Assembly (NCBI RefSeq): GCF_963921235.1 | Contig: NC_086097.1 | Location: forward strand, 10,478,001 to 10,542,000 | DNA length: 64,000 nucleotides | Direction: 5' to 3' | Origin: Mobula hypostoma | Lineage: Eukaryota | Shown here: positions 3,290 through 54,456 of the stretch, one piece after another | Layout of the letters: each line of letters begins with the position of its first letter | How positions within the stretch are numbered: the stretch's first letter is position 1 | Made by a program: the position numbers and the translations under genes | Notes under the pieces: model-generated | Seen by the model: only the letters and a program-made list of their open reading frames with translations | What the model was told of the DNA's origin: nothing | Databases searched by the model: none

Positions 3290-3545
3290 TATTCTTTCTT
3301 TTCCTGTTCTTGATCTTTCCCACCCCACTGGTTCACCTATCACCTTCTAGCCAGCCTCCTTCCTCTCCCCCCACCCTTTTATTCTGGCATCTACCCTTAT
3401 CTTTCTCATCCAGAATAAGGGTCTTGGACTGAAGCATTGATTGTCTATCCATTTCCATAGACGCTGTCTAACCTGCTGAGTTCCTCCAGCATTCTGTGAG
3501 TGTGGCTTTGGATTTCCAGCATCTGCAGATGTTCTTATGCTTATG
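3290..3545 (+). mobile_element. Penelope-like element 3' end, decayed hammerhead motif
   Basis: Pyrimidine-rich tract, then 'agggtcttggactgaagcattgattg', then 'acctgctgagttcctccagca..tttccagcatctgcag'; homologous to the PLE 3' region at 32205-32600. Confidence 0.65.
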
Positions 3546-3669
3546 ATTACAAGGAATAGATGTCATTGTATTCCTCATGCATATTCAAATCTTAGGATCT
3601 ATTTCCATACAAAGAGTCACTTTCAATGTAAATTTTGAGGTGAGAGGATAACAGTACTCTGGAAATATG

Positions 3670-4290
3670 GAACGGTATTGCACAAGAGCAGGATCTAGGG
3701 TGCAATGTACAGCATCTATAGCAACCATAATGCCAATTAAATCGAATCCCATCTGCCTGTGCATGACTTTTATCTTCCTTTCTCTGCCTGTTCATATTCC
3801 TGTCTAAATATCTCTTAACTTTTGCTGTCATCCCTGATCCTAGCACTTCACCCGGTAGTGCGTTCCAAACACCTACCACTCTGTGTAAAATCTTGCCTTT
3901 CAATTCCCCTTTAAAATACCACGCACCAACCACATTCTCCTCTCTTCCTTTCACCTTAAAGCTACACCCTCTAGTATTTCTCATTTTTATCTTCGGAAAA
4001 AGACTCTGACTATCTTCCCAAAGTAACACCCACAAAATGCTGGAGGAACTCAGCAGGTCAGGCATAAATAAGCATTTGATGTTTTGGATCAAGACCCTTC
4101 ATCACTCCTGGATTGACTGTTTATTAATTTCCATAGATGCTGCCTGACCCACTGAGTTCCTCCAGCATTTGTGTGTGTTGCTCTGGATTCCCAGCATCTG
4201 CAGAATCTCTGATGTTGCTGACTATTTATCCTGTCTTTATCCTTCCTCCCATAATTTTATATACTTTTATCAGGTTATCTCTCAGCCTCC
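3670..4290 (-). mobile_element. CR1 3' fragment hosting a PLE mini-insertion
   Basis: ORF 3592-4092 contains TRGCSFKVKG...RVVGVWNALPGEV, a CR1 ORF2 C-terminus. Confidence 0.7.
4020..4217. mobile_element. Palindromic PLE-derived mini-element
   Basis: Inverted arms 'cacaaaatgctggaggaactcagcaggtcaggca' / 'tgcctgacccactgagttcctccagcatttgtg'. Degenerate TSD ctgactatcttccc (4006-4019) / ctgactatttatcc (4218-4231). Confidence 0.75.
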
Positions 4291-4294
4291 AGAT

Positions 4295-4300
<6 letters not shown>

Positions 4301-4344
<44 letters not shown>
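4301..4344. repeat. (AG)n microsatellite
   Basis: About 22 AG units, read directly. Confidence 0.95.
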
Positions 4345-4349
<5 letters not shown>

Positions 4350-4769
4350 AATAAAATAAACACATGGAGAAAATAAATAGAAGCATTCAGCTGTACAAGC
4401 TTACAACCTCATTTATATTGTGCTCACATTGAGATAGCTTAGCCTTCTGTGGTGTTAGATTGTACTGGAGGAACTTACTGCATGCTCTGCTCACATCTAT
4501 TTCTCCCATGATTTTCTTGTATCCCCATCCTGGCACTGGTCCAGGGTGTCTATAAAAGAAGATTTTGTTTAATTCATGGCTTTCACAAATTAATTCACCA
4601 GCTCAAAACACAAACCACTTCCAGATCACTACAAACTCTATCTGGTATAAATTGTTACCTCAAGATTCCAGTAATCATCCTGACATAATCCTATCATATC
4701 AGTGGCAAGGTCCAATGAAGCCAAGAGTAGAATTTCTGTCAATTATTCATCCTGCTTTCACCTAAGATG

Positions 4770-5490
4770 AATTGTGACTCCTGAGAGTGCACATCTTGCA
4801 CATCCTTGCATGGGCTCAGGACACTTCCAACACAATCAAAAACGGTCACCAATACCTCTACTGTCTAAGGAGGCTGATGAGAACTGGACTATGCACATCA
4901 ATACGCATGACTGTCTACAGGTGTGCAGAAGAGAGCATCCTAACATGTTACATCTTTGTATGGTACATAAATTGCACTGCGGCAGACAGGAAGACTTTAC
5001 AACAGGTAATCAAAACTGCCAAACACCCAACCAGCACCAGCCTATCCACCAACAAAGACATATATACAGAAAGGTGGTGAAGAAAGAGCAGAAATACCAC
5101 AAAATATTTCACTTACTCTGTTCATGAGCTGTTTGGGAAGGAAGAAACATAGCATCAATCTCAGGACCACCAGACTCAAAAACAGGTACTTTCCCCAAGC
5201 AGTAAGGCTGATCAACACCTCCACCCACGAACACACCCCTCCACATCCCCAATGTGCACTACTTTATCATTTCCTTTCAGAGTCACCTTTTGAACAGACA
5301 CTGCTCACTAGCACCACTTTATGGACATACAATCAATCTATGTACATAAGCTATCTTATGCATTTATATTTATTGTGTATTTATTATTAGTGTGTTCTTT
5401 TATATTCTCCATTGGGACCCGAGTAACAATTATCTTGGTCTCCATTACACTTGTGTACTGGAAATGACAGTAAAAAATCTTCAATTTTGA
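4770..5490 (+). mobile_element. Rex1/Babar LINE 3' fragment
   Basis: Peptides QYLYCLRRL..YRCAEESILTCYIFVWY.NCT..DRKTLQQVIKTA and RTTRLKNRYFPQAVRLIN are typical of the Rex1 C-terminus. Confidence 0.75.
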
Positions 5491-5714
5491 AACCAAAGCA
5501 CACAGGAAGTTATAATTTTGGTATTCCACACGCAATGTGTGGAATACATATACTGTATACTTATTCCCAAATATTACGAAATATACAAAATAAAAATTGT
5601 TCAAATCAAACGGCTGTGGAAAAGAAGTTACTGTTATCATAGCGTGGAATGGAAGACGAAAGGTTCAATTATTGTGTCTAGAGGGCAAAAGTCTTTGACA
5701 ACCAAATACAAAAA

Positions 5715-6352
5715 ATGCTTGTTCTTTGGAGCATGGACCTTCATAAATCAAAATATTGAGTACTGAAGTCGGGATGTTTTGCTGAAGTTATTTAAATAAG
5801 AGATTGTTGAGGCCTAATTTGGAGTATTGTATGCAGTTTTAATCTCCTACCTACTGGAAAGATGTAAATAAGATTGAAAGAGCGCAGAGAAAATTTACAA
5901 GAATGTTGCTGGGACTTGAGGACCTGAATTATAAGGAAAGGTTAAAACTTGATTCCCCAGAACGTAAAAGATTAAGGATAGATTTGAAAGAGCTATACAA
6001 AATTATAAGAGGTACAGATAGGGTAAATGCAAGCAGTCTTTTTCATCTGAGATTGGGTGAGACTAGAACTAGAGGTTATGGGTTAAGGGTGAAAGGTGAA
6101 ATGTTTAAAGGGAACATCATGGGAAATGTCTTCACTCAGAGGATTGTGAGAGTGTGGAACAAGCCACAAGTGCAAGAAATGCACGCGAACTTGATTTCAA
6201 CATTTAAGAGAAGTTTGGATAGGTAGATGGCTGATCGGGGTATGGAGGGCTATGGGCCCACTGCAGGTTAGTACAGGGAGTAGGAAGTTTAATTGGTTGG
6301 TATGAACTAGATGGGCCAGTTTCTGTGTTGTAATTTTCTATATGACTCTATG
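5715..6352 (+). mobile_element. CR1 3' fragment
   Basis: ORF 5903-6226 (LEDLNYKERL..TRTRGYGLRVKG..FTQRIVRVWN). Short tandem-repeat tail. Confidence 0.8.
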
Positions 6353-6421
6353 ATGACCTGAGTTATCAGGTGAGCCTGCAGGTCGGGCACGTTACGGCCA
6401 TCGAAGGGTCAGGTCATCTCT

Positions 6422-7290
6422 CAATAGACAATAGACGATAGGTGCAGGAGTAGGCCATTTGGCCCTTCAAGTCAGCACCGTCATTCACTGTGATCATGGC
6501 TGATCATCCACAATCAGTATCCAGTTCCTGCCTTATCCCCATAACCTTTGATTCCGCTATCTTTAAGAGCTCTATCCATCCCTTTTTTGAAAGCATCCAG
6601 AGTCTTGGCCTCCACTGCCTTCTGGGGCAGAGCATTCCACATATCCACCACTCTCTGGGTGAAAAAGTTTTTCTTCAACTCCGTTCTAAATGGCTTACCC
6701 CTTATTCTTAAACTGTGGCCTCTGGTTCTGGACTCACCCATCAGCGGGAACATGCTTCCTGCCTCCAGAGTGTCCAATCCCTTAATAATCTTATATGTTT
6801 CAATAAGATCCCCTCTCAGCCTTCTAAATTCCAGAGTATATAAGCCCAGTCGCTCCAATCTTTCAACATATGACAGTCCCGCCATCCTGGGAATTAACCT
6901 TGTGAACCTACGCTGCACTCCCTCATTAGCAAGAATGTCCTTCCTCAAATTTGGAGACCAAAGCTGCACACAGTATTCCAGGTGTGGTCTCACCAGGGCC
7001 CTGTACAGCTACAGAAGGACCTCTTTGCTCCTATACTCAATTCCCCTTGTTATGAAGGCCAGCATGCCATTAGCTTTCTTCACTGCCTGCCGTACCTGCA
7101 TGCTTGCTTTCAGTGACTGATGTACAAGAACACCTAGATCTCCTTGTACTTCCCCTTTTCCTAACTTGACTTCATTTTGATATTAATCTGCCTTCCTGTT
7201 CTTACCACCAAAGTGGATAAGCTCACATTTATCTGCATTATCCACATTAAACTGCATCTGCCATGCACCCGCCCACTCACCCAGCCTGCG
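6422..7290 (-). mobile_element. CR1 5'-truncated copy nested in the RTE 3' end
   Basis: ORF 6514-6993 RPHLEYCVQLWSP...TRGHSLRIRG..FFTQRVVDMWNALP. Tail (ATTGTCT)n. Confidence 0.9.
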
Positions 7291-10170
7291 GACGTCTCCT
7301 TGCGGTCCTGGTGCTTTGATGAAGGTCCTTCAGCTGCTGCCCTTCAAATGTGCTGATGCCTTTGCAGACTGCCGGGAGTCAGACATTGCTGTGTTTGGCC
7401 AAGGCCTCCCAAAAAGTCACAGGTATATTGCATGCCATCAAGGACTCTTCCATGCAGTTTTTATAGTGCTCTGTTGGGCCTCCCTGCTTTCTGGTGCCAT
7501 GTACCAGCTCGGAAAAGAATCCCATCTTTGGAAGGAGGTTGTCTTCCATCCGAACCACATGTCCGACCCATTGAAGTTGGGCCTTCATGATCAGTGTCTC
7601 TGTGCCAAAGCTCTCAACCCTTTGTAGCACTTCTGTGCTGGGGGACTCTGTCTTGCCGCGAGGTCCCATGATCTTGTAAAGGTATTGCAGGTGGAACTGG
7701 TCAAGCATCTTGATCTGCCTGCAGTATGGGGTCTATGTTTCACAGCCATACAGTAGAGAAGTCAGGACGACTGCTCTCTAGACTGCCATCTTGGTCTTCA
7801 GCTTAATGTCACTTTCTCCTCACACACATGTTCATAGCCTGTCAAAGAATGCCTCAGCTTTTGCAAGTCTGTTTGAGATGTCTCAACCTAGTCTGCAGGA
7901 GGAGCTGAGGCAGCTTCCCAGGTAGGTGGAGGCATCAATGTTGTTGAGCTGAGTGCCTTCAATCTCAATTCGTGGTCCCACAGGATTGATATGGCGTGTG
8001 GGCTGAAGTAGAACTTCTGTCTTCTGCATGCTGATGGTTAGGCCGAATTTCCTTGTTGCCAGAGTGAGGCAATTAGCAAGCTCCTGCAGGTCCGTTTCAG
8101 TGTGCGCTGCAAGGGCGCAGTCATCTGCAAAGAGGAAGTCTGGTACTATTGCTTCCAGCACTTTGGTCTTGACCTTGAGGCGTCACAGATCAAAGAAGTG
8201 TATCAGTCCTATAGCGAATTGTTATTCCTGCATCAGATGTGAAAGCAGAGAGCAGCATTGTGACAAACAGCTGCTGAACATACTAGGTCCAAGGACAGAG
8301 CCTTGCTTGACACCATTATTTACTAGGAAGGGGTTAGAGGTCTAGCTGTTTTTGATGACTCTGGCCATTATGCTATTGTGGAATGACCTGATAATGCTAA
8401 CCAACCTTGGGTGGGGGCATCCTAAATTGGTAAGGATGTGCTGAAGGCCTGTGTGACTGATGGTATCAAATGCCTTAGTCAGGTCCACAAAGTGGAGGTA
8501 GAGATTCTGGTTCTGTTCCTGGCATTTCTCCTAGATCTGCCTGACAGCGAAGATCATGTCCATTATCCCTCTGTTAGATATGAAACCACACTGGCTCTCT
8601 GACACAATGTCATGAAGGAGGTGAGAGGTAATCTTGTTCAGTATAATACAGGCTGTGATCTTCCAGGCTATACTCAGGAGAGATATGCCTCTGTAGTTGT
8701 CACAGGATCCCCTGCCCCCCTTGTTCTTGTACAGGTGGATAATTTTTGCATCCCTAAAGCCCTGTGGTACACAGGCTTTCTCCCAGAATTGCTGCATGAG
8801 CTCTGTCAGCCTCTGAAGAAGGGTTTTGCTACCCTCCTTTGAAGACTTCTGGTGGGATCCCATCCCAGCCAGGGGCCTTACTTGGCTGCAGCTGGTTGAC
8901 TGCCTTCCTAGCTTCTACCAGTGTGGGGGAATCATCAAGGGCCTCCAAGTCTGGGTGCTGGGTCATGTCTTCTATGGCCTGGTCATCTGTCTGGGATGGC
9001 TTGTTCAGCAGCTGGACAATGATCTGCCCAGCGTTGGACAATGTCACCTTTGTTAGTGAGGAGCACTCAATCCAAGAAGCGGACTGGTGCCATGATGTTG
9101 GAGGAAGGTCTGTACACTGCCTTTAGACCATCAAAAAACTTCTTTGTGTTGTTCTGGTCAGTGCAGTGCCGAAGCTCTTCTGCTTTGGCCTCCCACCACT
9201 GATCTTTCACCTTCCACAGCTCAGCCTGGACCTTACTATGGAGGTGCTTCAAGTGGCTATGTTTGGAGGTTGACTGCTTGTCACTGAGCCAGCTTGCGGA
9301 GGCTTCCTGCTTCTGCTTGAGAAGGGTGATGATATCAGAGATGTTCTCATTGAACCATTCCTGATGCTTCCTCTTGGAGTGCCCAAGAACAGCACTTGCA
9401 GCACAGTACAGGGCGTCTCTGAAGACAGCCCATGCTGTTTCTGGGTCTGCTTCCTCAGGCAGTTCCTCAAGTTGTTCCTCCAGTTTGCTGATCAGCATTT
9501 CTTCGATGCTGGGGTCAGCAAGCTGTTCCACGTTCAGCTTCCACTTAGTGTCAGCCTGCTGGTGCCTGTGCACCCTGACGATCTGAAAGAGCAGCTTGCT
9601 TCTCAGCAGTCTGCACCCCTCATCACTCTGGTGATGATCACATCGCAGATGTCCCGCCACCTTGTGATCACGTAATCAATCAGGTGCCAGTTCTTGGAGC
9701 GCGGGTGCATCCAGGTTGCCTTGTGGATGCCTGGAAGCTGGAAGAGGGTGTTGGTGATTGTCAGCCCATTTTCTGTGCAGAAGGTGAGTAGAAGCTACCC
9801 ATTTGAATTCTCCTTTCCAAGGCCATGCTTGCCAGTGATTTCCGGCAAATACAGTTGATCACTGCCTACTCAGGCATTAAAGTCGCCAATTAGCAAGATC
9901 TTGTTGTCTTTGGGGACAGAGCATAGTAGCTGGCCGAGTTTCTGTTAAAAAAGTTACTTCTTTTCAGAGGTGTAGGCCATGGTGGGTGCGTAGGCACTAA
10001 TCAGAGTCAGGTGAGTCCTGGCTTCTAGAAGCAGCCTCATTACCATGAGGTGATTGTTGATGTCTCCAGGTCCCTGACGGTAGTGAGCCACGTGGCAAAG
10101 TCAGCTCTGGTTTCTCTAGCCTCATCCTTTTCCTTTCCACTCCAGAAAAAAAAGCCCCCACTTCTGCAAT

Positions 10171-15540: not shown

Positions 15541-15552
15541 TTAGAAAAAAAA

Positions 15553-18818: not shown

Positions 18819-19330
18819 TACAGTACTGTGCAAAAGTTTTATACACATATATTGCTAGGATGCCTAAGAATTTTGCAGTCGTGTAATTGTCAAAGTGGAA
18901 CGGAAAACATGTTTGTAAATTCGGTGGGAGAAAAGGATGTTGGGAATAGTGAGGGTGGAGCACTGTGGGATGGATATAGGGCCAGGAGTGAGGGTTGGTG
19001 TGGTTGCAGAAACACCCAGCCCTGAGACACGAGGAACGGTCATTTGCTTCTGAACAATTGGTTTATTGATCATTACAGAATGTCTCTCTGATCCTTCCCT
19101 CTCCCTTTCCCTTTTCCCAACCATGATTCCCCTCTCCCTGCCCCCTTCCCACTTTTAATCCACAAAAGAGACCCATATCAGAATCAGGTTTATCTTCACT
19201 CACGTATGTCATGAAATTTGTTTTTATTTTGCAGCAATAGTATAGTGCAATATGTAAACTTACTACAGTACTGTGCAAAAGTCTCAGGCACCCTTGCTAT
19301 ATAGACTATATGTGCCTAAGACTTTTGCAA
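18819..19330. mobile_element. Composite Tc1/mariner-type MITE (copy 1)
   Basis: TACAGTACTGTGCAAAAGT-bounded palindromic modules at both ends. Core homologous to 59763-60142. Confidence 0.7.
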
Positions 19331-19412
19331 GGTCTTGTACTTCTGGCATTAATTAGAGCCATGGAATTGAGCAGTACAGAAACAATCTTCTCAGCCCATT
19401 ACATCCACACCA

Positions 19413-19594
19413 GAGCCACACACACAAAATGCTGGAGGAAATCAGCAGATTGGGCAGCATTCATGGAAATGAATAAACAGCTGGCATTTTGCGCCAAGAA
19501 CCTTTATCAGGACTGGAAGGGGCCTGACCTGCTGAGTTCCTCCAGCATTTTGTGTGTATTGCTCTGAATTTCCAGCATTTGCAGAATCTCGTGT
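19413..19594. mobile_element. Palindromic PLE-derived mini-element
   Basis: Inverted arms 'cacacaaaatgctggagga' / 'tcctccagcattttgtgtg'. Degenerate TSD ttacatccacacca (19399-19412) / ttacgtccatatca (19595-19608). Confidence 0.75.
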
Positions 19595-20283
19595 TTACGT
19601 CCATATCAACCTGTTTGCCCCTCTCCACAATTCTCAACTGCCTGTACAGGTCTGTATCCTTCAAAGTTTTGCCCATTCAAGTGTCTGTCTAAATTTCTCT
19701 TTAAAAAAATAAATGATTGTATACAATCAACCACCTCCTCTGGCAATAAGTTGCAGATATTAACCAGTCTCAGAAAATCCCCCTTAAAGTTCCTCTTTTT
19801 TTTGATATTGTGAAAATGGGAAAAAAAATCTTGCTATCTATCTTATTTTTTGCATCTTATTATTTCACATGCACCTATCAATAACAACCATCACACCACT
19901 CATATCTCTTTCACTTCAGGAAAACAAGCCCAGTCCTTACAATTTTTCCCTTTAACTAAAGACTTCCAATCCACACAACATCCATATCAATTTTCTCAAT
20001 ACTGTCTTTGGTGCAGCAAAATCCTTCCCAGGAAGGTGAGACCTGCACAGAGTGGATGGTTTGCACCTGAACTGGAGGGGGACTCATATCCAGCAGGAGG
20101 GCTTGTTAATGCTACATAGTGGGGTTTAAACTAGAGATTCGGGGGGATGGGAACCAGAATACCAGAACAATTAGTGGAGAGGTTGTGGAGGCTGACGCTG
20201 GTAAGACCTCAGACAAAGTTAGAAATCAAAAGGTTGGGCATGGTGTGACAAAACTGAAAAGAGTGAATACAGGACTGAAAGTG

Positions 20284-20320
20284 CAAACACGAGGAAATCT
20301 GCAGATGCTGGAAATTCAAG
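20284..20320 (-). mobile_element. 37-bp PLE terminal-tip insertion
   Basis: caaacacgaggaaatctgcagatgctggaaattcaag, flanked by caggactgaaagtg (20270-20283) / caggactgcaagtg (20321-20334). Confidence 0.75.
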
Positions 20321-22414
20321 CAGGACTGCAAGTGTTGTAAGCTGAATGTGCACAGTATACAGAATAAGGTAGGTGAACTTACAGCACAGTTGCAGATTGG
20401 CAGCTATGATGTTGTAGGCATCACTGAATCATGGCTAAAAGATTATAGCTGGGAGCCTATTGTCCAAGGATAAATATTGTGTCAAAAGGGAGGGCAGGAA
20501 GGCAGAGGGGGTGGCATTGCTTTGTTGGTAAAAAATGAAATCAAATCATTAGAAGGAGGTGACATAAGGTTGGAAGGTGTTGAATCATTGTGCATAGAGC
20601 TAAGGAACTGCAAGGGTAAAAAGACCCTGATGGGAGTTGTGTACAAACTCACAAAGAGTAGTAAGGGTGTGGCCTACAAATTACAATGGGAGATAGAAAA
20701 TGCATTCCAAATGGACAATGTTACAATAGTCATGGGGGACTTCAATATGCAGGTAGGTTGGAAAAATCAGGTTGGTGCTGGATTACAGGAGGAGGAATTT
20801 ATAGAGTGCCTACAAGGTGGGTTTATAGAGCAGCCCATAATTGAGCACACTAGAGGATCAGCTATTCTGGATTAGGTATTGTACAATGTATCAGAATTTG
20901 TTAGAGAGCTTAAAGAAAAAGAACCCTGAGTAGACAGTGATCATAATGACTGAATTCACTCTGCACTTTGAGAAGGAGATGTTAAAGTCGGATACATCAG
21001 TATTACACTGGAGTAAAGAGAATTACAAAAGCATGAGAGAGGAGTAGGTCAGAATTGATCGGAAAAGATCACTGGCAGGGATGACAGCAGAGCAACAACG
21101 CTGAAATCTCTGAAAGCAATTCAGAAGACACAGGATATATACATCCCAAAGAGGAAGAATTATTCTAAAGGAAAGATGACACAACCATGGCTAAGAAGAG
21201 AAGTCAAAGCCAATATAAAAGCCAAAGAGAGGGCATATAATAGACCAAAAATTAGTGGAAAGTTAGAGGATTGAGAAGCTTTTAAAAACCAACAGAAGAC
21301 AACTAAAAAAGTAACTAAGAAGGTAACTATGGAATACAAAAGTAAGGTAGCCAATAATATTAAAGAGGATACCAAAAGTTTCTTCAGATGCATAAAGTGT
21401 AAAAGTGGGGCAAGAGTGGATATTGGAACACTGGAAAACAATGCTGGAGAGATAGTAATAGGGGATCAACTGAATAAGTATTTTGCATCAGTCTTCAATG
21501 TGGAAGACAGTAGCAGTACTTTGGAAGTTCCAGGTATCAGGATGCAGGAAATGTATAAAGTTAGCATAACTAGATAGAAGTTTCTTAGGAAACTGAAAAG
21601 TCTGCAGTAGATAAGTCACCTGGACCAGATGGTGTACACCCCAGAGTTCTGAAAGAGGTGGCTGAAGGGACTGTGGAGGCAGTAGTAATGATCTTCAAAG
21701 AATCACTAGATTCTGGAATGTTTCTGGAAGACAGAGAAAATGCTAATGTCACTCCACTCTTCGAGAAAGGAAGGAGGCAGGAGAAAGGAAGCTATAGGCC
21801 AGTTAGTCTGACTTCTGTGGTTGGGAAGATGTTGGAGTCGATTATTAAGGATGAGTTCTCAGGGTACTTGGAAGCACATGATAAAAGAGTCTATAGTCAG
21901 CATGGTTTCCTTAAGGGAAAATCTTGCCTGACAAATCTTGGAATTCTTTGAAGAAATAACAAGCAGGATAGACTAAAGAGAATCGCTTGATGTTGTGTAC
22001 TGGAATTTTTAGAAAGTCTTTGACAAGGCTACTTAATAAGCTATGAGCCCATGGTATTACAGGAAATATTCTAGCATGGATAAAGCAGTGTCTGATTGGC
22101 AGGAGGCAAGGAGTGGGAATGAAGTGAACTTTTTCTGGCTGACTGCTGGTGACTAGTAGTGTTCCACAGGGGTGTGTGTTGGGACTGATTATTTTTTCAT
22201 TATATGTCAATGATTTGGATGATGGAATTGATGGCTTTGTTGCAAAATTTGCAGATGATATTAAGATAGCTGGAGGGGCAAGTAGTTTAGACGAAGTAGA
22301 GAGGCTACAGAAGGATTTAGACAGATTAGCAGAATGGGCAAAGAAATGGCAGATGGAATACAATGTTGCAAAGCGTTTGGTCATGCACTTTGATAGAAAT
22401 GTTGACTATTTTCT

Positions 22415-30690: not shown

Positions 30691-31004
30691 TCATTCCTCA
30701 ATAAACAAGATAGGAATTGAACCAGCATAACAACTTGAGAACTTAAAAAATTAAACTGCTGAAAACCATCTGCAGGTGAAGCAACATCCTTGGAGCCAGA
30801 AGAAGAGTTAAAATTGCAGGTCAAACACAACTAGAATTGATGAAGAGAATACAAATTGGTTTTAAGATGCATGGAAGGTGGGGGAAGGATAGATAGAACA
30901 AATAGAATATCTGTGAAAAGCTGAGGTCAGTTTTTTCCTTTCGATTAGCACAGGATATATCACACATCAAAGAGAACCACCACCTTGTCTTGGTTTGGAA
31001 GTTT

Positions 31005-31370: not shown

Positions 31371-32264
31371 AACTTCATTTCACAATTATTTATTGCATTA
31401 TCTGTGTTTCCATTTCTAATTTTCCTCCATCTGTCCATTAATCAGATGACCTCTACAACTATTTCTGAAACAATCCTGACATCACTCTGTCAGAGATGTT
31501 TCCTTAATTCATCCTTCGCTTCCCATCCTTCTAGAACCTTAAATCCCTTCTACAATGCGGAACAAAAATCTTCAACCCAATACGTTAGTTCAATCTCTCT
31601 TTCCTCAACTGAATCTTTCCAGAATTTCAGCATTGATTTCAGATTTTCAGGCACCTGCAGCTTGTTTGTTTGTTTTTTCCAATACCAGTGTGGGGTTGAG
31701 AGATTGGAGAGAAATAGTTATCAGACTTCAACAGAATTACAGTTCATTTTAGTGCTGTGTCATTATCAATAAAGGGTCGTAATAAGGCTCAAGAGAAAGA
31801 AATTGCAAATCGAATAAGTTTCTGATTTAATGCAGTCACAGCTAACAATGCAACTTCTAAAATCTTCTCCAACCCATTCAATGTTAGATGTACACAAAGA
31901 AATTAGAAAAAAAGAGCCATAAGCATTGTGTAATATTCAATAAAACAATATTATGGAAGATCACTTTGTCAGCGACAACAGTAATGCCTTTCTCTTTTTA
32001 CAACACCAGACATCTAGGAAATCCATCTTTCATAAACACATTCAAAATCCCTTTATTTATTTAACCAGAACAAATAGGTTATTGAATCAACCACCCTGAA
32101 AGTACAGCTGCTAAATGGTAGATTAAAATTGAGAACTATGTTCTCAAATAAACACTGGTGAAGACAGACTACCCAGTAAAATGAAACACAGAGTATAACA
32201 GGCTACATACATCAAAGTTGCTGGTGAACGCAGCAGGCCAAGCAGCATCTATAGGCAGAGGTGC

Positions 32265-32300
32265 AGTCGACGTTTCAGGCCGAGACCCTTCGTCAGGACT
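32265..32300 (-). ncRNA. Minimal type-I hammerhead ribozyme motif
   Basis: Reverse complement AGTC CTGACGA AGGGTCTCGGCCT GAAA CG TC GACT: conserved core, stem I AGTC/GACT, GUC cleavage triplet. Confidence 0.8.
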
Positions 32301-32599
32301 AACTGAAGGAAGAGTGAGTAAGGGATTTGAAAGCTGGAGGGGGAGGGGGAGATGCAAAATGATAGGAGAAGACAGGAGGGGGAGGGATAGAGCCGAGAGC
32401 TGGACAGGTGATAGGCAAAAGGGGATACGAGAGGATCATGGGACAGGAGGTCCGGGAAAAAGACAAGGGGGTGGGGGGGGTGACCCAGAGGATGGGCAAG
32501 AGGTATATTCAGAGGGACAGAGGGAGAAAAAGGAGAGTGAGAGAAAGAATGTGTGCATAAAAATGAGTAACAGATGGGGTACGAGGGGGAGGTGGGGCC

Positions 32600-34252
32600 T
32601 TAGCAGAAGTTAGAGAAGTCAATGTTCATGCCATCAGGTTGGAGGCTACCCAGACGGAATATAAGGTATTGTTCCTCCAACCTGAGTGTGGCTTCATCTT
32701 TACAGTAGAGGAGGCCGTGGATAGACATGTCAGAATGGGAATGGGATGTGGAATTAAAATGTGTGGCCACTGGGAGATCCTGCTTTCTCTGGCAGACAGA
32801 GCGTAGATGTTCAGCAAAGCGGTCTCCCAGTCTGCGTCGGGTCTCACCAATATATAAAAGGCCACATCGGGAGCACCGGACACAGTATATCACCCCAGTC
32901 GACTCACAGGTGAAGTGATGCCTCACCTGGAAGGACTGTTTGGGGCCCTGAATGGTGGTAAGGGAGGAAGTGTAAGGGCATGTGTAGCACTTGTTCCGCT
33001 TACACGGATAAGTGCCAGGAGGGAGATCAGTGGGGAGGGATGGGGGGGACGAATGGACAAGGGAGTTGTGTAGGGAGCGATCCCTGCGGAATGCAGAGAG
33101 AGGGGGGAAGGGAAAGATGTGCTTAGTGGTGGGATCCCGTTGGAGGTGGCGGAAGTTAAGGAGAATAATATGTTGGACCCGGAGGCTGGTGGGGTGGTAG
33201 GTGAGGACCAGGGGAACCCTATTCCTAGTGGGGTGGTGGGAGGATGGAGTGAGAGCAGATGTACGTGAAATGGGGGAGATGCGTTTAAGAGCAGAGTTGA
33301 TAGTGGAGGAAGGGAAGCCCCTTTCTTTAAAAAATGAAGACATCTCCCTCGTCCTAGAATGAAAAGCCTCATCCTGAGAGCAGATGCGGTGGAGACGGAG
33401 GAATTGCGAGAAGGGGATGGCGTTTTTGCAAGAGACAGGGTGAGAAGAGGAATAGTCCAGATAGCTGTGAGAGTCAGTAGGCTTATAGTAGACATCAGTG
33501 GATAAGCTGTCTCCAGAGACAGAGACGGAAAGATCTAGAAAGGGGAGGGAGGTGTCGGAAATGGACCAGGTAAACTTGAGGGCAGGGTGAAAGTTGGAGG
33601 CAAAGTTAATAAAGTCAACGAGTTCTGCATGCGTGCAGGAAGCAGCACCAATGCAGTCGTCGATGTAGCGAAGGAAAAGTGGGGGACAGATACCAGAATA
33701 GGCACGGAACATAGATTGTTCCACAAACCCAACAAAAAGGCAGGCATAGCTAGGACCCATACGGGTGCCCATAGCTACACCTTTAGTTTGGAGGAAATGG
33801 GAGGAGCAAAAGGAGAAATTATTAAGAGTAAGGACTAATTCCGCTAGACGGAGCAGAGTGGTGGTAGAGGGGAACTGATTAGGTCTGGAATCCAAAAAGA
33901 AGCGTAGAGCTTTGAGACCTTCCTGATGGGGGATGGAAGTATATAAGGACTGGACATCCATGGTGAAAATAAAGCGGTGGGGGCCAGGGAACTTAAAATC
34001 ATCGAAAAGTTTAAGAGCGTGAGAAGTGTCACGAACATAGGTCAGAAGGGATTGAACAAGGGGGGATAAAACAGTGTCGAGGTATGCAGAAACGAGTTCG
34101 GTGGGGCAGGAGCAAGCTGAGACAATAGGTCGGCCAGGACAGGCAGGTTTGTGGATCTTGGGTAGGAGGTAGAAACGGGAAGTGCAGGGTGTGGGAACTA
34201 TAAGGTTGGTAGCAGTGGATGGGAGATCCCCTGAGCGGATAAAATCGGTGAT
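32600..34252 (-). CDS. PLE polyprotein (partial): reverse transcriptase, Cys linker, GIY-YIG endonuclease
   Basis: The frame stays open 97 codons upstream of the annotated Met (FYLLPKIHK..GRPIVS). Motifs DVQSLYTSI, GVAMGT, RYIDD, FLDL, CKRNKCYTC and VIYCVRCSRCGLLYIGET..R..EH. Confidence 0.9.
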   Translation of the reverse strand: MTDFIRSGDLPSTATNLIVPTPCTSRFYLLPKIHKPACPGRPIVSACSCPTELVSAYLDTVLSPLVQSLLTYVRDTSHALKLFDDFKFPGPHRFIFTMDVQSLYTSIPHQEGLKALRFFLDSRPNQFPSTTTLLRLAELVLTLNNFSFCSSHFLQTKGVAMGTRMGPSYACLFVGFVEQSMFRAYSGICPPLFLRYIDDCIGAASCTHAELVDFINFASNFHPALKFTWSISDTSLPFLDLSVSVSGDSLSTDVYYKPTDSHSYLDYSSSHPVSCKNAIPFSQFLRLHRICSQDEAFHSRTREMSSFFKERGFPSSTINSALKRISPISRTSALTPSSHHPTRNRVPLVLTYHPTSLRVQHIILLNFRHLQRDPTTKHIFPFPPLSAFRRDRSLHNSLVHSSPPSLPTDLPPGTYPCKRNKCYTCPYTSSLTTIQGPKQSFQVRHHFTCESTGVIYCVRCSRCGLLYIGETRRRLGDRFAEHLRSVCQRKQDLPVATHFNSTSHSHSDMSIHGLLYCKDEATLRLEEQYLIFRLGSLQPDGMNIDFSNFC

Positions 34253-34654
34253 AGGCTCCTATCTTTATTCAATTTCAACTTCCCATCTGCACATTGGGCT
34301 CCCCATGAGAGCTTCCACAAAGATAAAGAGAATGTGGTTAACTTGTCACTGTAATTTGAAAGATTCAGTAGGGCAAGTCCCTTAATTGTTTCAAAAGTAG
34401 AGCTGCCCACACACCAAGTTTATGGATGAGGGGGACACAAAGGAAAACCCCACAAAAAAAGTCAGGATGGAGATCTGAAATGGAATGTGGATTGCACAGG
34501 GAAGGTTAACATAGAACATAGAACAGTACAGCCCTTTGTCCCACAGTATTGTGCCGAACCAATTAAATTAATTATCAAATGGCTGACTAAACTAATCTTT
34601 TCTGCCTATACAATGTCCATATCCTCACATTCATGTGCCTGTCTAAACATCTCT

Positions 34655-34797
34655 TAAAAGACCTGATGAGGGGTCTCTGCCCGAAACATCAGCTGTTTAC
34701 ACGTTTCCATCGATGCTGCCTGGCCTTCTGGGATCCTCCAACGTTTTGTGTGTGTTGCTCAGATTTCCAGCATCTGCAGATTTCCTCTTGTTTATGA
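34655..34797 (+). mobile_element. PLE 3' fragment with hammerhead core
   Basis: CTGATGA (34663-69) GGGGTCTCTGCCC GAAAC ATC, then PLE terminal 'ttccagcatctgcagatttcctc'. Confidence 0.75.
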
Positions 34798-37906: not shown

Positions 37907-39887
37907 TATAATTGATATATAAAATTATTGTATGTTCCTAAATTAATATGAAAATGTTTCAAAGTATTTCTTCATTGTTGTAAATGTTGCTGATATTCAT
38001 TAGTAAGAACGTCCTTCATCCCATCTTGCCTATTTTAGAATAGATATACAGGTACATTGTGCTTTAAAGTTACAGTAAATATATTCTGTCAGCAGGCTAT
38101 CCAAGTATCTTCAGGAAGGATAGTAAAGCATTGCAAATCAGGAAGTGGCACCATAAGCTAGGTTTACATCCAACTCTTCTTCCTGTGGCTACTCATATTC
38201 GTAGGGTGCAAGATCATCTGAATGCTGGACAGCAACATTTTAATATTACACCAGCCTCAATGGAATATGGGCTCTATACTGAACCAGTGCTGACTTTGTT
38301 GAAGTACATCCTAATTTCTTCCTTTTGGCTAGTTAGTAAAGCAAATTGTCAACCTGACCAGGGCCAACATAACAGAGATATGCCAGGTTGCAATAATCTA
38401 CATGCCCTACTACTTTTCAGTAAGCTCTCATTTCAATGTCGTAAACACTCAAAATTGTAGCTATATTTGAATTCATCAGGAAGAGGAAATAGTCTAAATT
38501 TGCATCTATGGGAGAATAAACAAATAAGCATTTCAGACTCAGACAACAGCGTCCAGTCAGGAGTTAACTACAACCATCTTCAACATAGCAATATGTCCTA
38601 AGGAAATTGTCATAGTAGTTTCTTTGAACAAAATTTGTTGCCAGCCCACAATACAGAGGTAGTATTAAAGCATACAACCAAATCTTGGTTAAATAGATAG
38701 AGTTTAGTTGAGTATAAATAGCAAACAGAGAGCTGGGATAAAATTACCAAGCCCCTTGCTGAGACCTTGGCACTAGAGTCATTGTAGAAATGGACGGCAT
38801 TAGTGGAAAGCTGTCACGTTAGCACCCTGACAGGGTGAGATCAAGGGAGTTTTTCATCTGAATGTATCTTGTGATCTTCTGAAAAGAAATTTCCATAAAC
38901 AAACATCTTTCATCTGTCACTTTGTAAAATATCATAGCATCTTTAAAAACCAATTAATGGAAATTCTATACAAAGTAATTATAAAACTATATCTTTTTTA
39001 TGAGAATTTTAATTCATTGACACCTGCTTACCAAAGTACACCATTTTATCATTGGGAAGGCTGTATCCTGAATGCCAATAAGATTTTTAATCAGACTTAA
39101 ATGTATTAATATGAAGATAAGTTTGCTTCATTTGTCACATGTACATCAAAACATCGAAATGTACATTGAAATGTGTCATTTGCATCAATATCCAGCACAG
39201 TCTGAGAAATTGCTGGAGGTAGCTATCAGGTGTCACTATGCTTCCAGCACCAAGATAGTCTGCACACAACTTACCAACCCCTATTTCTTTGGAAAGCAGG
39301 GCACGAGGAGAATCTACAAACTCCTTATAGACAGCAGTAGGAATTAAACCCTGATCACTGGAGCTGTACTGCATTATGCCAACTGCTGTGCTGCCATGCT
39401 GTAAAATAAATTAGTCGATCACTGTTTAAATTAGTGGGCCCATTAAAGGATTCACTGTTAATGCTATGTTTAGCTATGTGTTAGAATTAAGCCATACATA
39501 TGTTGTGTGTTAGTGTTCATTGTTATCCTTATTTAATATCATTAACCTTGGAAATAAAAACACAGTTTATTAAAATATATTAGATTAGCAATCAAAGGCA
39601 ATCTTACCAATCAAAGGCAAGGCTGAATTTACTAATAGATCGTTGAAGTGAAATATCATCTCTCTGTTTGCTGATGCTGTCAGACCACTCGTTTCCCAAT
39701 ATATCATATTTTGATCATGGACTACAGTACTATGCAAAATTCTTTGGCACATATATATAGCTAGGGTACCTCAAACCTTTCCACAGTAGGGTATATTATG
39801 TCTTTCCTGTTTCCAAATAACACTTAATAATACTGAGCGAAATCAAAGCTAAGTACTCTTTAACAATTGCATTCTTATTTTAATCAA

Positions 39888-40500
39888 TATACTGTGAAGG
39901 AGTCTTAGGTACATATGGAAAGCTAAGGTGATTCAGGCTTCTGCACAGTATTGTATTTGTCAATGTGGAGCAGAAAGCGAGTTTGTAAATCTGATGGGAG
40001 CAAAGGAATGGCGAGAATGGAATGTTGCAGGAGTTAACACAGTACTATAGTAACTTCATGCATTGCATTGAACTGCCATGCAAAAAAATAAACTAATTTC
40101 ATGACATATGTGAGTGCTGATAAACCTGGTTCTGATACAGGTCTGTATTAAGGGTTGAGATTGGGAAGAGGGGCAGGGAGATGGGAATGATGGTTGGAAA
40201 AAGGGAAGGGGAGGGAGAGAGTGGGAAGCACCAAAAAGGCATTCTGTAATGATTAATAAACCAATTCTTTGGAATCAAGTGACTTTGCCTGGTGTCTCAG
40301 GGCTGGGTGTGTCTGCACCTGTGTCACCATCACCCACCCCGGCACTCTTTTGCCACCTGTCCCACACCCCTCGCCCCTCACACTGCACTCTGCCCTCACC
40401 ATTCCAAACTTCCTTTGCTCCTACCAAATTTACAGACTCACTCTCCACTCCATGCTGACAAAGACCATACTGTGCAAAAGTCTTAGCTGCCCTCACTATA
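39888..40500. mobile_element. Composite MITE (copy 2), internally rearranged
   Basis: Same terminal modules. A short plus-orientation core start is followed by a full minus-orientation core. Solo module at ~39722-39793. Confidence 0.6.
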
Positions 40501-40502
40501 GA

Positions 40503-45075: not shown

Positions 45076-45803
45076 GTTCATATTGGCCTCTTTCAATTCT
45101 ATGCTTTTTTCATGTCCTTGCCCAGTCTTTCTTGTTGCCAATTGGTGGATTGGGGGTTTAGGTGCTCTGTTAGTTTTTGTGTGAGGGAGGGGTTGGGGTT
45201 GGTGAGTTAAGGGATGTTAGGAGTGCATTGGGAGAAAGTTCTAGAGAGAGTTTGGTGACAGCAGTGTGGTTCGCAAGTCTTTTTGTGAGAGCAGACAGGA
45301 GGGAAGATGGCTGAACATGCTTTGGGAGGCATCGTCCCCGTTGCATGATGTGCTTTATACTGATGAATGGCTTCAAGGAGGAAGAGCCAATACTCCCAAG
45401 AGTAACACTCTCAAAAAATGCTGGTGAACGCAGCAGGCCAGGCAGCATCTATAGGAAGAGGTACAGTTGACGTTTCAGGCCGAGACCCTTCGTCAGGACT
45501 AACTGAAAGACTCCCAAGAGTGAGCCTATTTTTTTTGAGATGTATTTCAATTGAAGATCAGTGGGTCCAACATGTGAGTAAAATGACAACTCCAGGATAA
45601 GCTCCAAGTTATGTGTGACATTTTGACATCAATTCTCACTCCCCTTGCACAAAAAGAAAAATAAACTAAAGCTCACCAACCCCAACCCCTCCCTCACACA
45701 AAAACTAACAGAGCACCCAAACCCCCAATCCACCAATTGGCAACAAGAAAGACTGGGCAAGGACATGAAAAAAAGCATTGAATTGAAAGAGGCCAATATG
45801 AAC
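45076..45803. repeat. ~131-bp near-perfect inverted repeat (45076-45206 / 45672-45803)
   Basis: Manual alignment gives 2 substitutions and a 1-base homopolymer indel. Confidence 0.9.
45404..45509 (-). mobile_element. 106-bp PLE fragment containing the hammerhead motif (45465-45500)
   Basis: Nearly identical to 32218-32307. Perfect 12-bp TSD actcccaagagt (45392-45403 / 45510-45521). Confidence 0.88.
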
Positions 45804-49600: not shown

Positions 49601-51590
49601 CTCCAATCCTCCGGTACCATTCCCGTGGACGACGAGGACATAAAGATCCTAGCCAGAGGCTCAGCAATCACTTCTCTCGCCTCATGGAGCAGCCTGGAGA
49701 ATATTCCGTCAGGCCCCGGGACTTATCTGTCCTAATGTATTTTAACAACTCCAACATCTCCTCTCCCTTAATATCAGCATGCTCCAGAACATCAACCTCA
49801 CTCATATTGTCCTCACCATCATCAAGTTCCCTCTCATTGGTGAATACCGAAGAGAAGTATTCATTGAGGACCTCGCTCACTTCCACAGCCTCCAGGCACA
49901 TCTTCCCACCTTTATCTCTAATCAGTCCTACCTTCACTCCTGTCATCCTTTTTTTCTTCACATAATTGAAGAATGCCTTGGGGTTTTCCTTTGCCCTACT
50001 CACCAAGGCCTTCTCATGCCCCCTTCTTGCTCCTCTCAGCCCCTTCTTAAGCTCCTTTCTTGCTTCCCTATATTCCTCAATAGACCCATCTGATCCTTGC
50101 TTCCTAAACCTCATGTATGCTGCCTTCTTCGTCCTGACTAGATTTTCCACCTCACTTGTCATCCATGGTTCCTTCACCCTACCATTCTTTATCTTCCTCA
50201 CTGGGACAAATTTATCCCTAACATCCCGCAAGAGACCTCTAATCATCGACCTCATGTCCATAGTATATTTCCCTGCAAAAACATCATCCCAATTCACACC
50301 CGCCAGTTCTAGCCTTATAGCCTCATAATTTGCCTTTCCCCAATTAAAAATTTTCCTGTCCTCTTTGATTCTATCCTTTTCCATGATAATTATAAAGGCC
50401 AGGGAGCGGTGGTCACTGTCCCCCAGATGCTCACCCACTGAGGGATCTGTGACCTGACCCGGTTCATTACCTAGTACTAGATCTAGTATGGCATTCCCCC
50501 TAGTCGGCCTGTCCACATACTGTGACAGGAATCCATCCTGGAGACACTTAACAAATTCTGCCCCATCTAAACCCTTGGAACTAATCAGGTGCCAATCAAT
50601 ATTAGGGAAGTTAAAGTCACCCATGATAACAACCCTGTTATTTTTGCACCTTTCCAAAATCTGCCTCCCAATTCGCTCCTCTGTATCTCTGCTGCTACCA
50701 GGGGGCCTATAGAGTACCCCCAGTAGAGTAACTGCTCCCTTCCTGTTCCTGACTTCCACCCATATTGACTCAAAAGAGGATCCTGCTACATTGCCCACCC
50801 TTTCTGTAGCTGTAATAGTATCCCTGACCAGTAATGCCATCCCTCCTCCCCTTTTTCCGCCCCCTCTATCCCTTTTAAAGCACTGAAATCCAGGAATATT
50901 GAGAATCCATTCCTGCCCTGGTGCCAGCCAAGTCTCTGTAATGGCCACTACATCATAATTCCATGTATGTATCCAAGCTCTCAGTTCATCACCTTTGTTC
51001 CTGATGCTTCTTGCATTGAGGTACACACATTTCAGCCCTTCTACCTTACTGTCTTTACACCGTTTATTCTGCTTCTCTTTCCTCAAAGCCTCTCTGTATG
51101 TTAGATCTGGCTTTACTCCATGCACTTCTTTCACTGCTCTATCGCTCTGGGTCCCATCCCCCTCACAAATTAGTTTAAACCCTCCCGAACCATGCTAGCA
51201 AACCTACCTGCAAGGATATTACTCCTCCTCGAGTTCAGGTGCAACCCATCCAATCTGTACAGGTCCCACCTTCCACAGAAGAGATCCCAATGATCCAAAA
51301 ATCTAAAACCCTGCTCCCTGCACCAACTCCTCAGCCACGCATTCAACTGCCATCTCCTCCAATTCTTACCATCTCTGTCAAGTAGCACTGGCAGCAATCC
51401 TGAGAACGTCACCCTTGAGGTCCTGTTCTTCAGCCTTCTGCCTAATTCCCGAAACTCACACTTCAGGACCTCATCCCTCTTCCTGCCTATGTTGTTGGTC
51501 CCAACATGTATCACGACTTCTGGTTGCTTTCCCTTTCGTACCAGGATGTCGTGCACCCGGTCAGAGACATCCCGGACCCTGGCACCCAGG
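49600..51590 (-). mobile_element. Young CR1 internal segment (ORF1 SGNH esterase + ORF2 APE)
   Basis: ORF 51170-51556 has VIHVGTNNI and DGLHLN. ORF 49668-51134 has YLNARSI, VAITETWL, MGDFNFP and GDSDH, open for 488 aa. Confidence 0.92.
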
Positions 51591-52448
51591 AGAAAGATCT
51601 TTGAAAGATCACTACTAATGCCACTACAATCCTTTCAGAGCCCTGGCATGTTGTCCATCTGGTCCAGGTGACTTATCTACCTTCAGGCCTTTCAGCTTCC
51701 CAATCACCTTCTCCTTAGCAATAGCAACTATACTCACTTCTACTCCCCAAAACTCTTGCATTTGTGACATTCTACTAGTGGCTTCCCTAAATGCAAAATA
51801 CTTATGAATTTCATTAAGTTAAAATGCAGCTCATGATTTTCATGCTCAGAGAGAGAGAAATATATAATTGTCTCCTTAGTTTTCTCAACAAATTGTATAT
51901 CCTGGCGGTGTTCAGCTTTATATTAATAGCAATGTAATTGAAATTGCAGTAGGGTAACTTATCTTTCTACATGCCTCAGTTAAGAATATACTTGAGGTGA
52001 AAAATGTGACTGAAAACTCTTTGATGGCATTGAATTCTAGGTCAGTCATTATTCTGAATAACCCTGATATGAAATCTCCACATTGTCTTTCACTGGCAAA
52101 ATATTTCTGATCTTTTATTTATGAAGTGTATTAAAATGACTGGCAACCCTTTATACTACTAGATCAAATGCATTTTTAAAATCTTCAACTCAACTTGTAG
52201 TTGTCACCCTTTAGTCCTACTTGGCAACTATTAAAATATTTATATGTTATTTGTCTCACAATGAAAAGTTTGTCTTTGATTTGTGAAGTTCATAAAATGT
52301 AGTTGCTTCAGATGTTTTTGTCATGATACTGGGTTATGAATACCAGATGGACTATGCAAGATGAGTTTTCCACTTGCCCTAGCAAGTACAGCTATGTCTA
52401 TTGTTGCCTTCATCAATAGACTTGGCAACACCTTTGTTCTTGGACACA

Positions 52449-52960
52449 GGGCAGCGTGGTAGCGTAGTGGTTAGTGCAATGCTTTACAGTGCCAACTGTA
52501 AGATCGAGGGTCAATTCCTGCCACTGTCTGTAAAGAGTTTGTATATTCTCTCTTGCTTGGTGAGTGTGTGAGTGGGGGGTCAGGGTGGTCAGTGCTTCTG
52601 TGCATGGGAGCGGGGAGAGGGGCTTTGGGATTCTGTTGTTTCTATCATTCATTCTATGGTGTTTCTTGTTTCACAGGTATTTGTGAAGAGTAAAAATTTC
52701 AGGTTGTATACTATATACATTCTCTGATAGTAAATTGGAACATTTGACCATGTTGATTTCCTTCGGCTGCTCCGATTTCCAACCATATTCCAAAGATGTA
52801 CCCGGTTAGAGGTGGTAAGCTGTAGCCATGTGGTAGTGGGAGCATGGTGACACTCGCGAGCTGCCTCCAGCTCATCCTTGGGTTGTGTTGGTCATTGATG
52901 CAAACGATGTATTTTGCTGTATCTTTTGAAGTGTCAATGTACATGTGACAAAATAAAGCA
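52449..52960 (+). mobile_element. tRNA-derived SINE interrupted by a LINE-tail fragment
   Basis: A box tagcgtagtgg, B-box-like ggtcaattcc. The 3' part is homologous (inverted) to 17890-18040 and 39115-39290. Confidence 0.65.
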
Positions 52961-53996
52961 TTTGTTGACTGTCCGCAGGAGATGGTTGTGGACTTTAGGA
53001 AGGTGCAGTTCTGACAAAGGAGCGTTGACCTGAAACATTAGTCCTGTTTATGTTTTCACTAATATTACCTGACATGCTGAGTGCATTGAGCACTTTATTT
53101 TCATCCCTGTGTGAAGCAACCTGTCTCAGGTACACAGGCTGGCTATCTGCTCTCAATAAACAACAGTGGCTTGGTTGAGGAATGAAACAAAAACATTCAA
53201 CCTGATCAATCCCAGGGAGTTGTGTCTTGAATGATTGAAAGCTGTTGGGAGGGGGGGAGGGGGTTGTGGGTAGAGTTGCCAATTTCACCTGTATGTCATT
53301 AGGAAAATTATATTTCAAATTTTGAGATTCAAGTTTGTTTTTTTGTCATTTCCAGATCACAAGTATAAAGGAAAACAAAATAAATGTTACTTCAGATCAA
53401 ATGCAGCACAAAGAAAACTCAGTAAGCCAGAGAACACAATAAATATAATTACATAAGATAACTTATGGTTATGCATAGATTGGTTGTGAAGATAAAGCAT
53501 TTCAGGATGTATATTGCATCCCTTTCTCTGACATTAAATGTACCTTTGAAACCTTTGGAAGTGACACAAGGCACAGATGCGTCTGTACATAGTGTCTCTG
53601 ACAGGAAATGATAAAGCAGTGGTGGTGGGGTGTGTGGAAGGTTAGCTTAGTGGGTGGAGGTGTTCAGCAGCCTTTCTGCTTGGGGAAAGTAACTGTTTTT
53701 GAGTCTTGTGGTTCTGGCATAGACGCTACATAGCCTCCTCCCTGATGGGAGTGGCAAGCACTCCATGAGTAGGATGGGTGGGATCCTTTAAGATGTTACT
53801 GGCCAAAGAGTATTGGAAGAAAACCAAAGAATCTACAGATCCTGGAAATCCAAAACAAAAGCAAAAAGTATTGGAAACACTCAGCCGAACAAGCAGCAGC
53901 CATAAAATGAGAACCAGAGCCAATATTTTCGGCTGAAGGCACTTCAACAGAATTGGGAGAACATGTGTATTGGGAAAAATGGCATACTTCTCCGCT

Positions 53997-54456
53997 AACA
54001 CGAAGAATTCTGCAGATGCCTCCAACCTGATGGCATGAACATTGACTTCTCTAACTTCCGCTAATGCCCCACCTCCCCCTCATACCCCATCCGTTATTTA
54101 TTTATATACACACATTCTTTCTCTCTCTCCTTTTTCTCCCTCTGTCCCTCTGACTATACCCCTTGCCCATCCTCTGGGTTTCCCCCCCTCCCCCTTTTCC
54201 TTCTCCCTGGGCCTCCTGTCCCATGATCCTCTCATATCCCTTTTGCCAATCACCTGTCCAGCTCTTGGCTCCATCCCTCCCCCTCCTGTCTTCTCCCATC
54301 ATTTTGGATCTCCCCCTCCCCCTCCCACTTTCAAATCTCTTACTAGCTCTTCCTTCAGTTAGTCCTGACGAAGGGTCCCGACCCGAAACGTCAACTGTAC
54401 CTCTTCCTAGAGATGCTGCCTGGCCTGCTGCGTTCCCCAGCAACTTTAATGAGTGT
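53997..54456 (+). mobile_element. PLE 3' end with inverted terminal tip at its 5' junction
   Basis: Encodes LQPDGMNIDFSNFR* like the end of the 32600 ORF. Preceded by inverted 'aacacgaagaattctgcagatgc'. TSD atacttctccgct (53984-96) / atacttctctgct (54457-69). Confidence 0.9.
54361..54396 (+). ncRNA. Minimal hammerhead ribozyme motif
   Basis: AGTC CTGACGA AGGGTCCCGACCC GAAA CG TC AACT. Stem II GGGTC/GACCC; one stem-I mismatch. Confidence 0.7.

Follow-up and report, generated by a model that had tools for sequence, protein, structure and literature searches.

What are the short, hammerhead-bearing fragments that recur in a 64,000-nt stretch of Mobula hypostoma DNA (NC_086097.1, positions 10,478,001 to 10,542,000; here, the window)? 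This vertebrate DNA is rich in repeats, among them many fragments of long interspersed nuclear elements, and an original prediction had listed ten places in the window that carry the terminal region of a Penelope-like element (PLE). These were read as an autonomous PLE accompanied by tiny, ribozyme-centered derivatives reminiscent of retrozymes. The present analysis strongly favors another explanation, in which all ten loci derive from the 3' terminus of a single, abundant PLE lineage of the Neptune type, i.e., ordinary short insertions, 5' truncated and inverted, that carry a decaying minimal hammerhead. This reading is preferred because the terminal module is common to the pieces, target-site duplications (TSDs) flank six of the ten loci, 3' ends fall at two sites while 5' ends vary, some inserts have two arms, and the motifs are decayed.

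PLE-derived insertions in the window

PLE-terminus sequence was present at all ten listed places, as predicted, in nhmmer searches with a profile built from the pieces themselves (E values from 1e-142 to 2e-5; top match in the reversed-window control, E of 0.28). The 21-nt inverted arm at 53997, with a profile E value of 0.83, was linked by blastn to the tail at 20283-20308. The ten loci comprise 13 arms, three loci being two armed (Table 1), and arm ends are given relative to the predicted cut after GUC, which is coordinate zero. Arm lengths range from 21 to 2,049 bp, and no two loci have both ends exactly alike. Identity over the terminal module ranges from 51 to 89% across copies, which agrees with the several age classes proposed earlier. 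The short copy at 45404 is 88 to 89% identical over the module to two copies bearing an open reading frame (ORF), and short and ORF-bearing copies have subfamily letters in common. The pieces are neither all tiny nor hammerhead associated throughout, as had been claimed: 32205-32600 is the 3' end of a 2,049-bp copy with an open ORF, and the 37-bp insert at 20284 contains no hammerhead.

Duplications of 12 to 14 bp abut both ends of six loci, so that the predicted size range stands, while the predicted count of five does not; the view of the pieces as discrete insertions of a hammerhead-bearing PLE is upheld. Compared with 3,000 random pseudo-insertions, the duplications are strong (P = 0.0003 each) at 20284 (14 bp with one mismatch), 45404 (12 bp exact, or 15 bp with one mismatch), and 53997 (13 bp with one mismatch), moderate at 53823 (13 bp with two mismatches; P = 0.002), and degenerate at 4020 and 19413 (14 bp with three mismatches each; P = 0.012). 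These P values are optimistic, because boundaries were placed by eye after the duplications had been seen; a looser scan supported four of the ten loci at a P value of ≤0.023. The boundary test gave no duplication at 3300, 34663, or 53005, and the ORF-bearing copy at 32205-34252 has only a 5-bp flanking repeat (P = 0.08). The CR1 sequence around 4020 becomes collinear once the insert and one duplicate are removed; the same test at 20284 gave no alignment.

Two sites, about 35 nt apart, account for all 3' ends: site 1 for 6 of the 13 arms (+61, +67, +67, +68, +70, and +71) and site 2 for the other 7 (+99, +99, +102, +102, +104, +104, and +104). PLEs can carry an optional tail of 30 to 40 bp, the ends of which are reverse transcriptase (RT) start sites in an anole PLE (PMC11167929), and the two sites match this tail. 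(Here and below, published systems are represented by the passages of the cited papers that were compared with the window.) Contigs of four public sequencing runs, those named here being X1, X5, and X10, were also compared with the window, and the statements on them refer to the 15 of about 3,200 joints and 24 of about 9,900 loose-end entries listed. Loose contig ends of mixed sequence pile up at both 3' points, at 32205 in two of the four runs (X1 and X10) and at 34793-34797 in all four.

All three two-armed loci have their 3' ends outward, each pairing a site 1 end with a site 2 end; under independent even odds this pairing has a 1 in 8 chance. An inverted 5'-truncated copy with a tail at one end only is a published PLE pattern (PMC8557442), and opposite-strand pairs as well as dispersed single motifs have been ascribed to truncated PLEs (PMC4209133); the three head-to-head inserts match the known inverted arrangement of pseudo-long terminal repeats (pLTRs). 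The two fold-back loci are independent events, not one miniature inverted-repeat transposable element (MITE) that was copied, because their internal junctions differ (-26/-2 versus -36/+28) and their ends are asymmetric. The direct arm of the third two-armed insert (54018-54456) begins within the ORF end.

The ORF-bearing copy and lineage assignment

The ORF at 32600-34258 (minus strand) encodes 552 amino acids (aa) without interruption and has one stop at its end but no start. It matches the Pfam families RVT_1 (E of 1.7e-5) and GIY-YIG (E of 5e-4), both below gathering scores, and holds a YIDD motif and a CX4CX2C linker between the RT and endonuclease (EN) domains. A Mobula hypostoma protein matches it at 95% identity over 67% of the query, and a Hypanus protein at 78% over 82%. 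Full-length relatives (P0006, P0013, and P0016) have 803 to 904 aa, and the window ORF is short of them by about 250 to 350 N-terminal residues. No upstream pLTR was found, the sequence beyond 34253 having no match to the terminal module. Since the start, the N terminus, and the upstream pLTR are all missing, 32205-34252 is a young 5'-truncated copy and not the autonomous PLE that had been proposed. A CX2-5CxxC linker marks Neptune and Nematis PLEs (PMC8557442); the RT with C-terminal GIY-YIG domain and linker points to the Neptune type, Neptune being favored over Nematis on host range.

Several host gene models of rays with kinase-, chitinase-, and NACHT-type names (P0001, P0002, P0004, and P0157) contain translated pieces of the same PLE, and annotation or exonization of the family is therefore common. 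In run X5, from a related organism, a 1,199-nt contig matches 34253-34569 only, starting exactly at the junction of the ORF-bearing copy, whereas an X1 contig at this junction continues into the element for 30 nt; the X5 relative may lack the 32205 copy. Summed contig depth in run X1 was 7.6 million for the hammerhead bin, 5.1 million for the ORF end, and 0.66 million for the 5' end of the copy, compared with 11 to 17 for unique flank; these sums are neither copy numbers nor a basis for ranking the parts and were not used as evidence.

The hammerhead motif

The motif is, by its sequence, the minimal type I hammerhead of PLEs, with a palindromic ACGU and no monomeric helix III. It is included in 9 of the 13 arms and missing from 4. 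Both core boxes are kept in four of the nine motifs, the core together with ACGU and GUC in three, and all of these plus the first helix I pair in one, at 32265-32301, the only intact motif. A search of Rfam at the gathering threshold gave no match in the window, which would be expected for a motif without helix III.

The helix II variants reported earlier (GGGTC-TC-GGCCT, GGGTC-CC-GACCC, and GGGTC-TT-GATCC) are present as quoted, but they do not amount to covariation. None of the five helix II pairs is changed on both sides among the nine sequences, and whole-structure covariation (0.231) equals the shuffled mean (0.231), with 245 of 500 shuffles as high, at the low power of nine sequences. 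Among the seven of nine arms that can be aligned over the helix II segment (stem and loop), 10 of 14 differences are transitions. G-U pairs resulting from C-to-T changes on the 3' strand of helix II would arise without selection, and the variation looks like decay by transitions.

The large genomic hammerhead load predicted earlier is probable. Scaled up from 64 kb, the nine motif remnants correspond to about 1.4 × 10^5 per Gb and the single intact motif to about 1.6 × 10^4 per Gb, each from one window and with very wide error. Minimal motifs number about 4,000 in the coelacanth genome and about 9,000 in that of Xenopus tropicalis (PMC4209133); the density of remnants in the window extrapolates above these values, although most remnants would fail a strict descriptor. 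For the axolotl, a section heading gives up to 120,000 (PMC7229834). A 21-letter pattern had no match in metagenome and viral contigs, and its one match in a prokaryote genome (L001) was discarded as chance, the similarity being confined to 20 to 22 pattern letters.

Proposed origin of the insertions

The pieces probably arose when target-primed reverse transcription by the element itself was aborted, and the hammerhead likely traveled with them as a passenger; in vitro, the hammerhead is dispensable for insertion (PMC11167929). The GIY-YIG nuclease would cut the two strands 12 to 14 bp apart, and internal priming by the RT, at tail site 1 (+61 to +71) or site 2 (+99 to +104), would in most cases be followed by an early stop. 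Priming of both nicked strands, one per site, would give two cDNAs joined head to head and thus an inverted arm with the tail at one end. Many cDNAs seem to end just upstream of the hammerhead, at the template's entry into a pyrimidine tract; this point may be the RNA 5' end or a stop site. Once inserted, the pieces are probably inactive from the outset and decay through transitions.

Several observations weigh against ordinary truncation as the whole explanation. The anatomy and junction counts come from 13 arms in one window, and a long TSD is missing from 4 of the 10 loci. Six of the 13 arms begin within 18 nt (-43 to -26), just ahead of the motif, and this clustering is more than smooth truncation predicts under most null models, although only suggestively so. 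Finally, one joint of the head-to-tail type was found among the joints listed, in a single X1 contig with a depth of 210, versus 11 to 17 for single-copy flank; there, the site 1 tail end lies directly on the C3 position of the hammerhead, which would define a unit of about 90 nt if the arrangement is head to tail.

Alternative explanations

An explanation compatible with truncation, though rather unlikely, is that the short copies are complete cDNAs that run from the tail priming sites to a transcript 5' end 10 to 15 nt upstream of the hammerhead, much as if retroviral strong-stop DNA were inserted directly. The 5' ends in the window lie at -1984, -374, about -140 (computed from arm length for the arm at 3300), -43, -40, -36, -33, -27, -26, -2, +28, +68, and +82. 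The original prediction would have been undone by boundaries placed at random relative to the ribozyme; the ends are indeed nonrandom, but the 3' ends are fixed at the two tail sites, as any PLE would show, and the 5' ends gather upstream of the motif rather than at the cut site, where only one of the 13 arms (4112) begins. Six starts in any 18-nt window had P values of 0.002, 0.003, 0.008, 0.03, and 0.11 under five assumed length distributions and of 0.014 when the observed lengths were permuted, and both 3' sites are represented among the six arms. With junction-defined arms only, 4 of 10 start in the cluster, and two of three null models are nonsignificant (P = 0.04, 0.24, and 0.47); the boundaries are also spread over 18 nt.

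Contig ends pile up at 32300 (-31) in both DNA runs (568 in X1 and 571 in X5) and in X10 (69), with low agreement in X1 and X5 (0.38 to 0.40), where the majority letters form a purine run. This pile agrees with the cluster but is confounded, being at least partly a second subfamily whose untranslated region (UTR) diverges there, as the purine run indicates. PLE RT in vitro starts just downstream of the hammerhead and proceeds to the template 5' end (PMC11167929), and transcription of Penelope starts within the pLTR, both of which fit complete cDNAs. However, the Drosophila Penelope intron ends at helix I, in the equivalent place (PMC4209133), and the transcription start of Penelope therefore lies further upstream. 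The cluster may mark the RNA 5' end, but a hot spot for stopping or joining within the pyrimidine tract, including joining by microhomology, would look alike. The tract at 32303-32330 (minus strand) ends in CAG immediately ahead of helix I and resembles a 3' splice site. A spliced template behind the cluster was considered and set aside, the arms at 45404 and 19413 retaining 5 to 7 nt of the tract.

In its broadest form, the tiny copies would be a fossil record of the PLE cycle, with run-off cDNAs and with two-armed inserts made by priming both nicked strands, one per site. This proposal is tentative and somewhat improbable; if it is true, the RNA 5' end and the in vivo geometry of priming could be mapped from about 10^5 such inserts per gigabase. 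A literature search found no paper combining hammerhead ribozyme, Penelope, and cartilaginous, and none, as judged on the search listings, on PLE run-off or twin priming.

Solo pLTRs left by deletion or recombination of longer copies, or MITE-like elements that a DNA transposase mobilized via their inverted arms, are a very unlikely source of the pieces. The loci without a long TSD would fit such remnants, since TSD-less solo pLTRs in Adineta are ascribed to recombination or deletion, and two loci have inverted arms of 45 to 47 bp that could suggest MITEs. Against this, the majority of loci are TSD bounded at both ends, one of them at only 37 bp, and the fold-back loci are independent by their junctions and ends.

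A nonautonomous, ribozyme-centered short family resembling non-long-terminal-repeat retrozymes, which would be transcribed, self-cleaving, circularizing, and mobilized in trans by the PLE, was the reading advanced originally. Retrozymes of this kind (Cervera and De la Peña 2020, PMC7229834; Li et al. 2026, bioRxiv) are like the window pieces in having a type I hammerhead, an origin in PLE pLTRs, no coding capacity, and longer TSDs (>4 bp; PMC7229834); monomer derivatives exist, and retrozymes were found in the one chondrichthyan examined (bioRxiv 2026.07.22.740005). The tandem-type X1 joint and the arm at 4112 that begins at the cut site also fit. Unlike the window pieces, however, retrozymes consist of a defined unit repeated in tandem, usually carry canonical hammerheads, and yield linear and circular monomer RNAs (PMC7229834). 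The window contains no tandem hammerhead unit, and its pieces are solitary or head to head, share no length, are mostly mutated, and carry the minimal PLE type of motif. The missing covariation and the subfamily letters common to short and ORF-bearing copies likewise argue against the retrozyme reading, which is thus highly improbable, as is a true retrozyme seed, a hammerhead unit of about 90 nt repeated head to tail, elsewhere in the genome. Truncation of an ordinary PLE is the explanation carried forward.

Comparison with known systems

EN-containing PLEs of the Neptune type share with the window an ORF with RT, CX2-5CxxC linker, and GIY-YIG and a strong tendency to 5' truncation (PMC8557442, PMC3846280, and PMC8969392), as well as inverted 5'-truncated partners, an optional tail of 30 to 40 bp at one end, TSDs, and a hammerhead near the 3' end. 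The window differs from EN-containing PLEs in its TSDs of 12 to 14 bp (8 to 10 bp in rotifer examples), in its extremely short inserts (37 to 200 bp), and possibly in a pile of 5' ends at the upstream edge of the hammerhead, which has no counterpart in the descriptions compared.

The minimal hammerheads of metazoan PLEs (Cervera and De la Peña 2014, PMC4209133) likewise lack a monomeric helix III and have palindromic positions 15.2 to 16.2, an unpaired base before helix II, and G10.1-C11.1, and they are mostly found scattered singly or as opposite-strand pairs associated with truncated PLEs. The Schistosoma hammerhead, by contrast, has a helix II of 7 to 8 bp, whereas that in the window has 4 to 5 bp (PMC4209133). 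In the green anole Poseidon element studied in vitro (Frangieh et al. 2024, PMC11167929), as proposed for the ray element, two RT start sites define the tail, both strands are cut and extended, and the hammerhead lies just upstream of the priming region and is unneeded for insertion. Poseidon belongs to another clade, and its ORF starts in helix II, while the ORF start of the ray family lies outside the window.

Coordinates and neighboring features

The coordinates of the insertions are collected in Table 1. A further weak match to the terminal module at 30763-30824 (minus strand; E of 0.003) is possibly an eleventh, very old piece and was excluded from every count. A reading of the copies at 32205 and 34663 as a single inverted unit was dismissed, since they are 68% identical and share no TSD.

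Table 1. PLE-derived features of the window (arm ends relative to the predicted hammerhead cut)
Feature	Position	Strand	Remarks
5'-truncated PLE copy, subfamily A: RT, CX4CX2C linker, GIY-YIG ORF, 3' UTR, hammerhead	32205..34252	-	Ends at tail site 1 (+67)
Hammerhead, minimal type I: helix I, CUGACGA, helix II, GAAA, palindromic ACGU	32265..32301	-	Predicted cut after 32269
Old subfamily B 3' end, about -140 to +102	3300..3541	+	Hammerhead core mutated; no TSD
Fold-back insert in CR1	4020..4217	.	Inverted arm 4020-4104 (-26 to +71); direct arm 4112-4217 (-2 to +104)
Degenerate 14-bp TSD of 4020 insert	4006-4019 / 4218-4231
Fold-back insert	19413..19594	.	Inverted arm 19413-19519 (-36 to +70); direct arm 19522-19594 (+28 to +99)
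Degenerate 14-bp TSD of 19413 insert	19399-19412 / 19595-19608
Tail-only insert (37 bp), +68 to +104, no hammerhead	20284..20320	-	14-bp TSD 20270-20283 / 20321-20334
Subfamily B arm, -27 to +104	34663..34794	+	No TSD; hammerhead C3 abuts truncation end of CR1 3' fragment
Young single arm, subfamily A, -40 to +68	45404..45509	-	Exact 12-bp TSD 45392-45403 / 45510-45521
Very old diverged arm, about -33 to +61	53005..53100	+	No TSD
Very old diverged arm, -43 to +99	53823..53966	-	13-bp duplication with 2 mismatches, 53810-53822 / 53967-53979
Two-armed insert	53997..54456	+	21-nt inverted distal tail 53997-54017 (+82 to +102); direct arm 54018-54456 (-374 to +67)
13-bp TSD of 53997 insert	53984-53996 / 54457-54469

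Several neighborhoods have features of their own. At 34508-34794, a CR1 3' fragment and a PLE arm lie head to head, with the junction (34662/34663) exactly at hammerhead C3 and no common TSD. Within 53810-54469, the young 53997 insert lies 4 bp from the duplication of the very old 53823 insert, and another old arm lies 700 bp from this pair, possibly indicating local target reuse. The PLE insert at 45404 is flanked by 129-bp inverted repeats (45079-45206 and 45672-45800) that are 98% identical and about 465 bp apart; they have no further match within the window. Palindromes of about 70 to 80 bp with a common end motif occur at 19264-19339, 18819-18888, 39721-39788, 39901-39955, and 59690-59765 and look like a tiny MITE of the Tc1/mariner type.

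Significance

The window provides a ray instance of a described pattern, in which truncated PLE ends scatter relics of the minimal hammerhead. Motif counts in such genomes overstate the number of working ribozymes, only one of the nine motifs here being intact. The retrotransposition of PLEs is still poorly understood, and many short, TSD-bounded inserts of this kind let both priming at two sites and possible run-off at the 5' end be tested by counting junctions.

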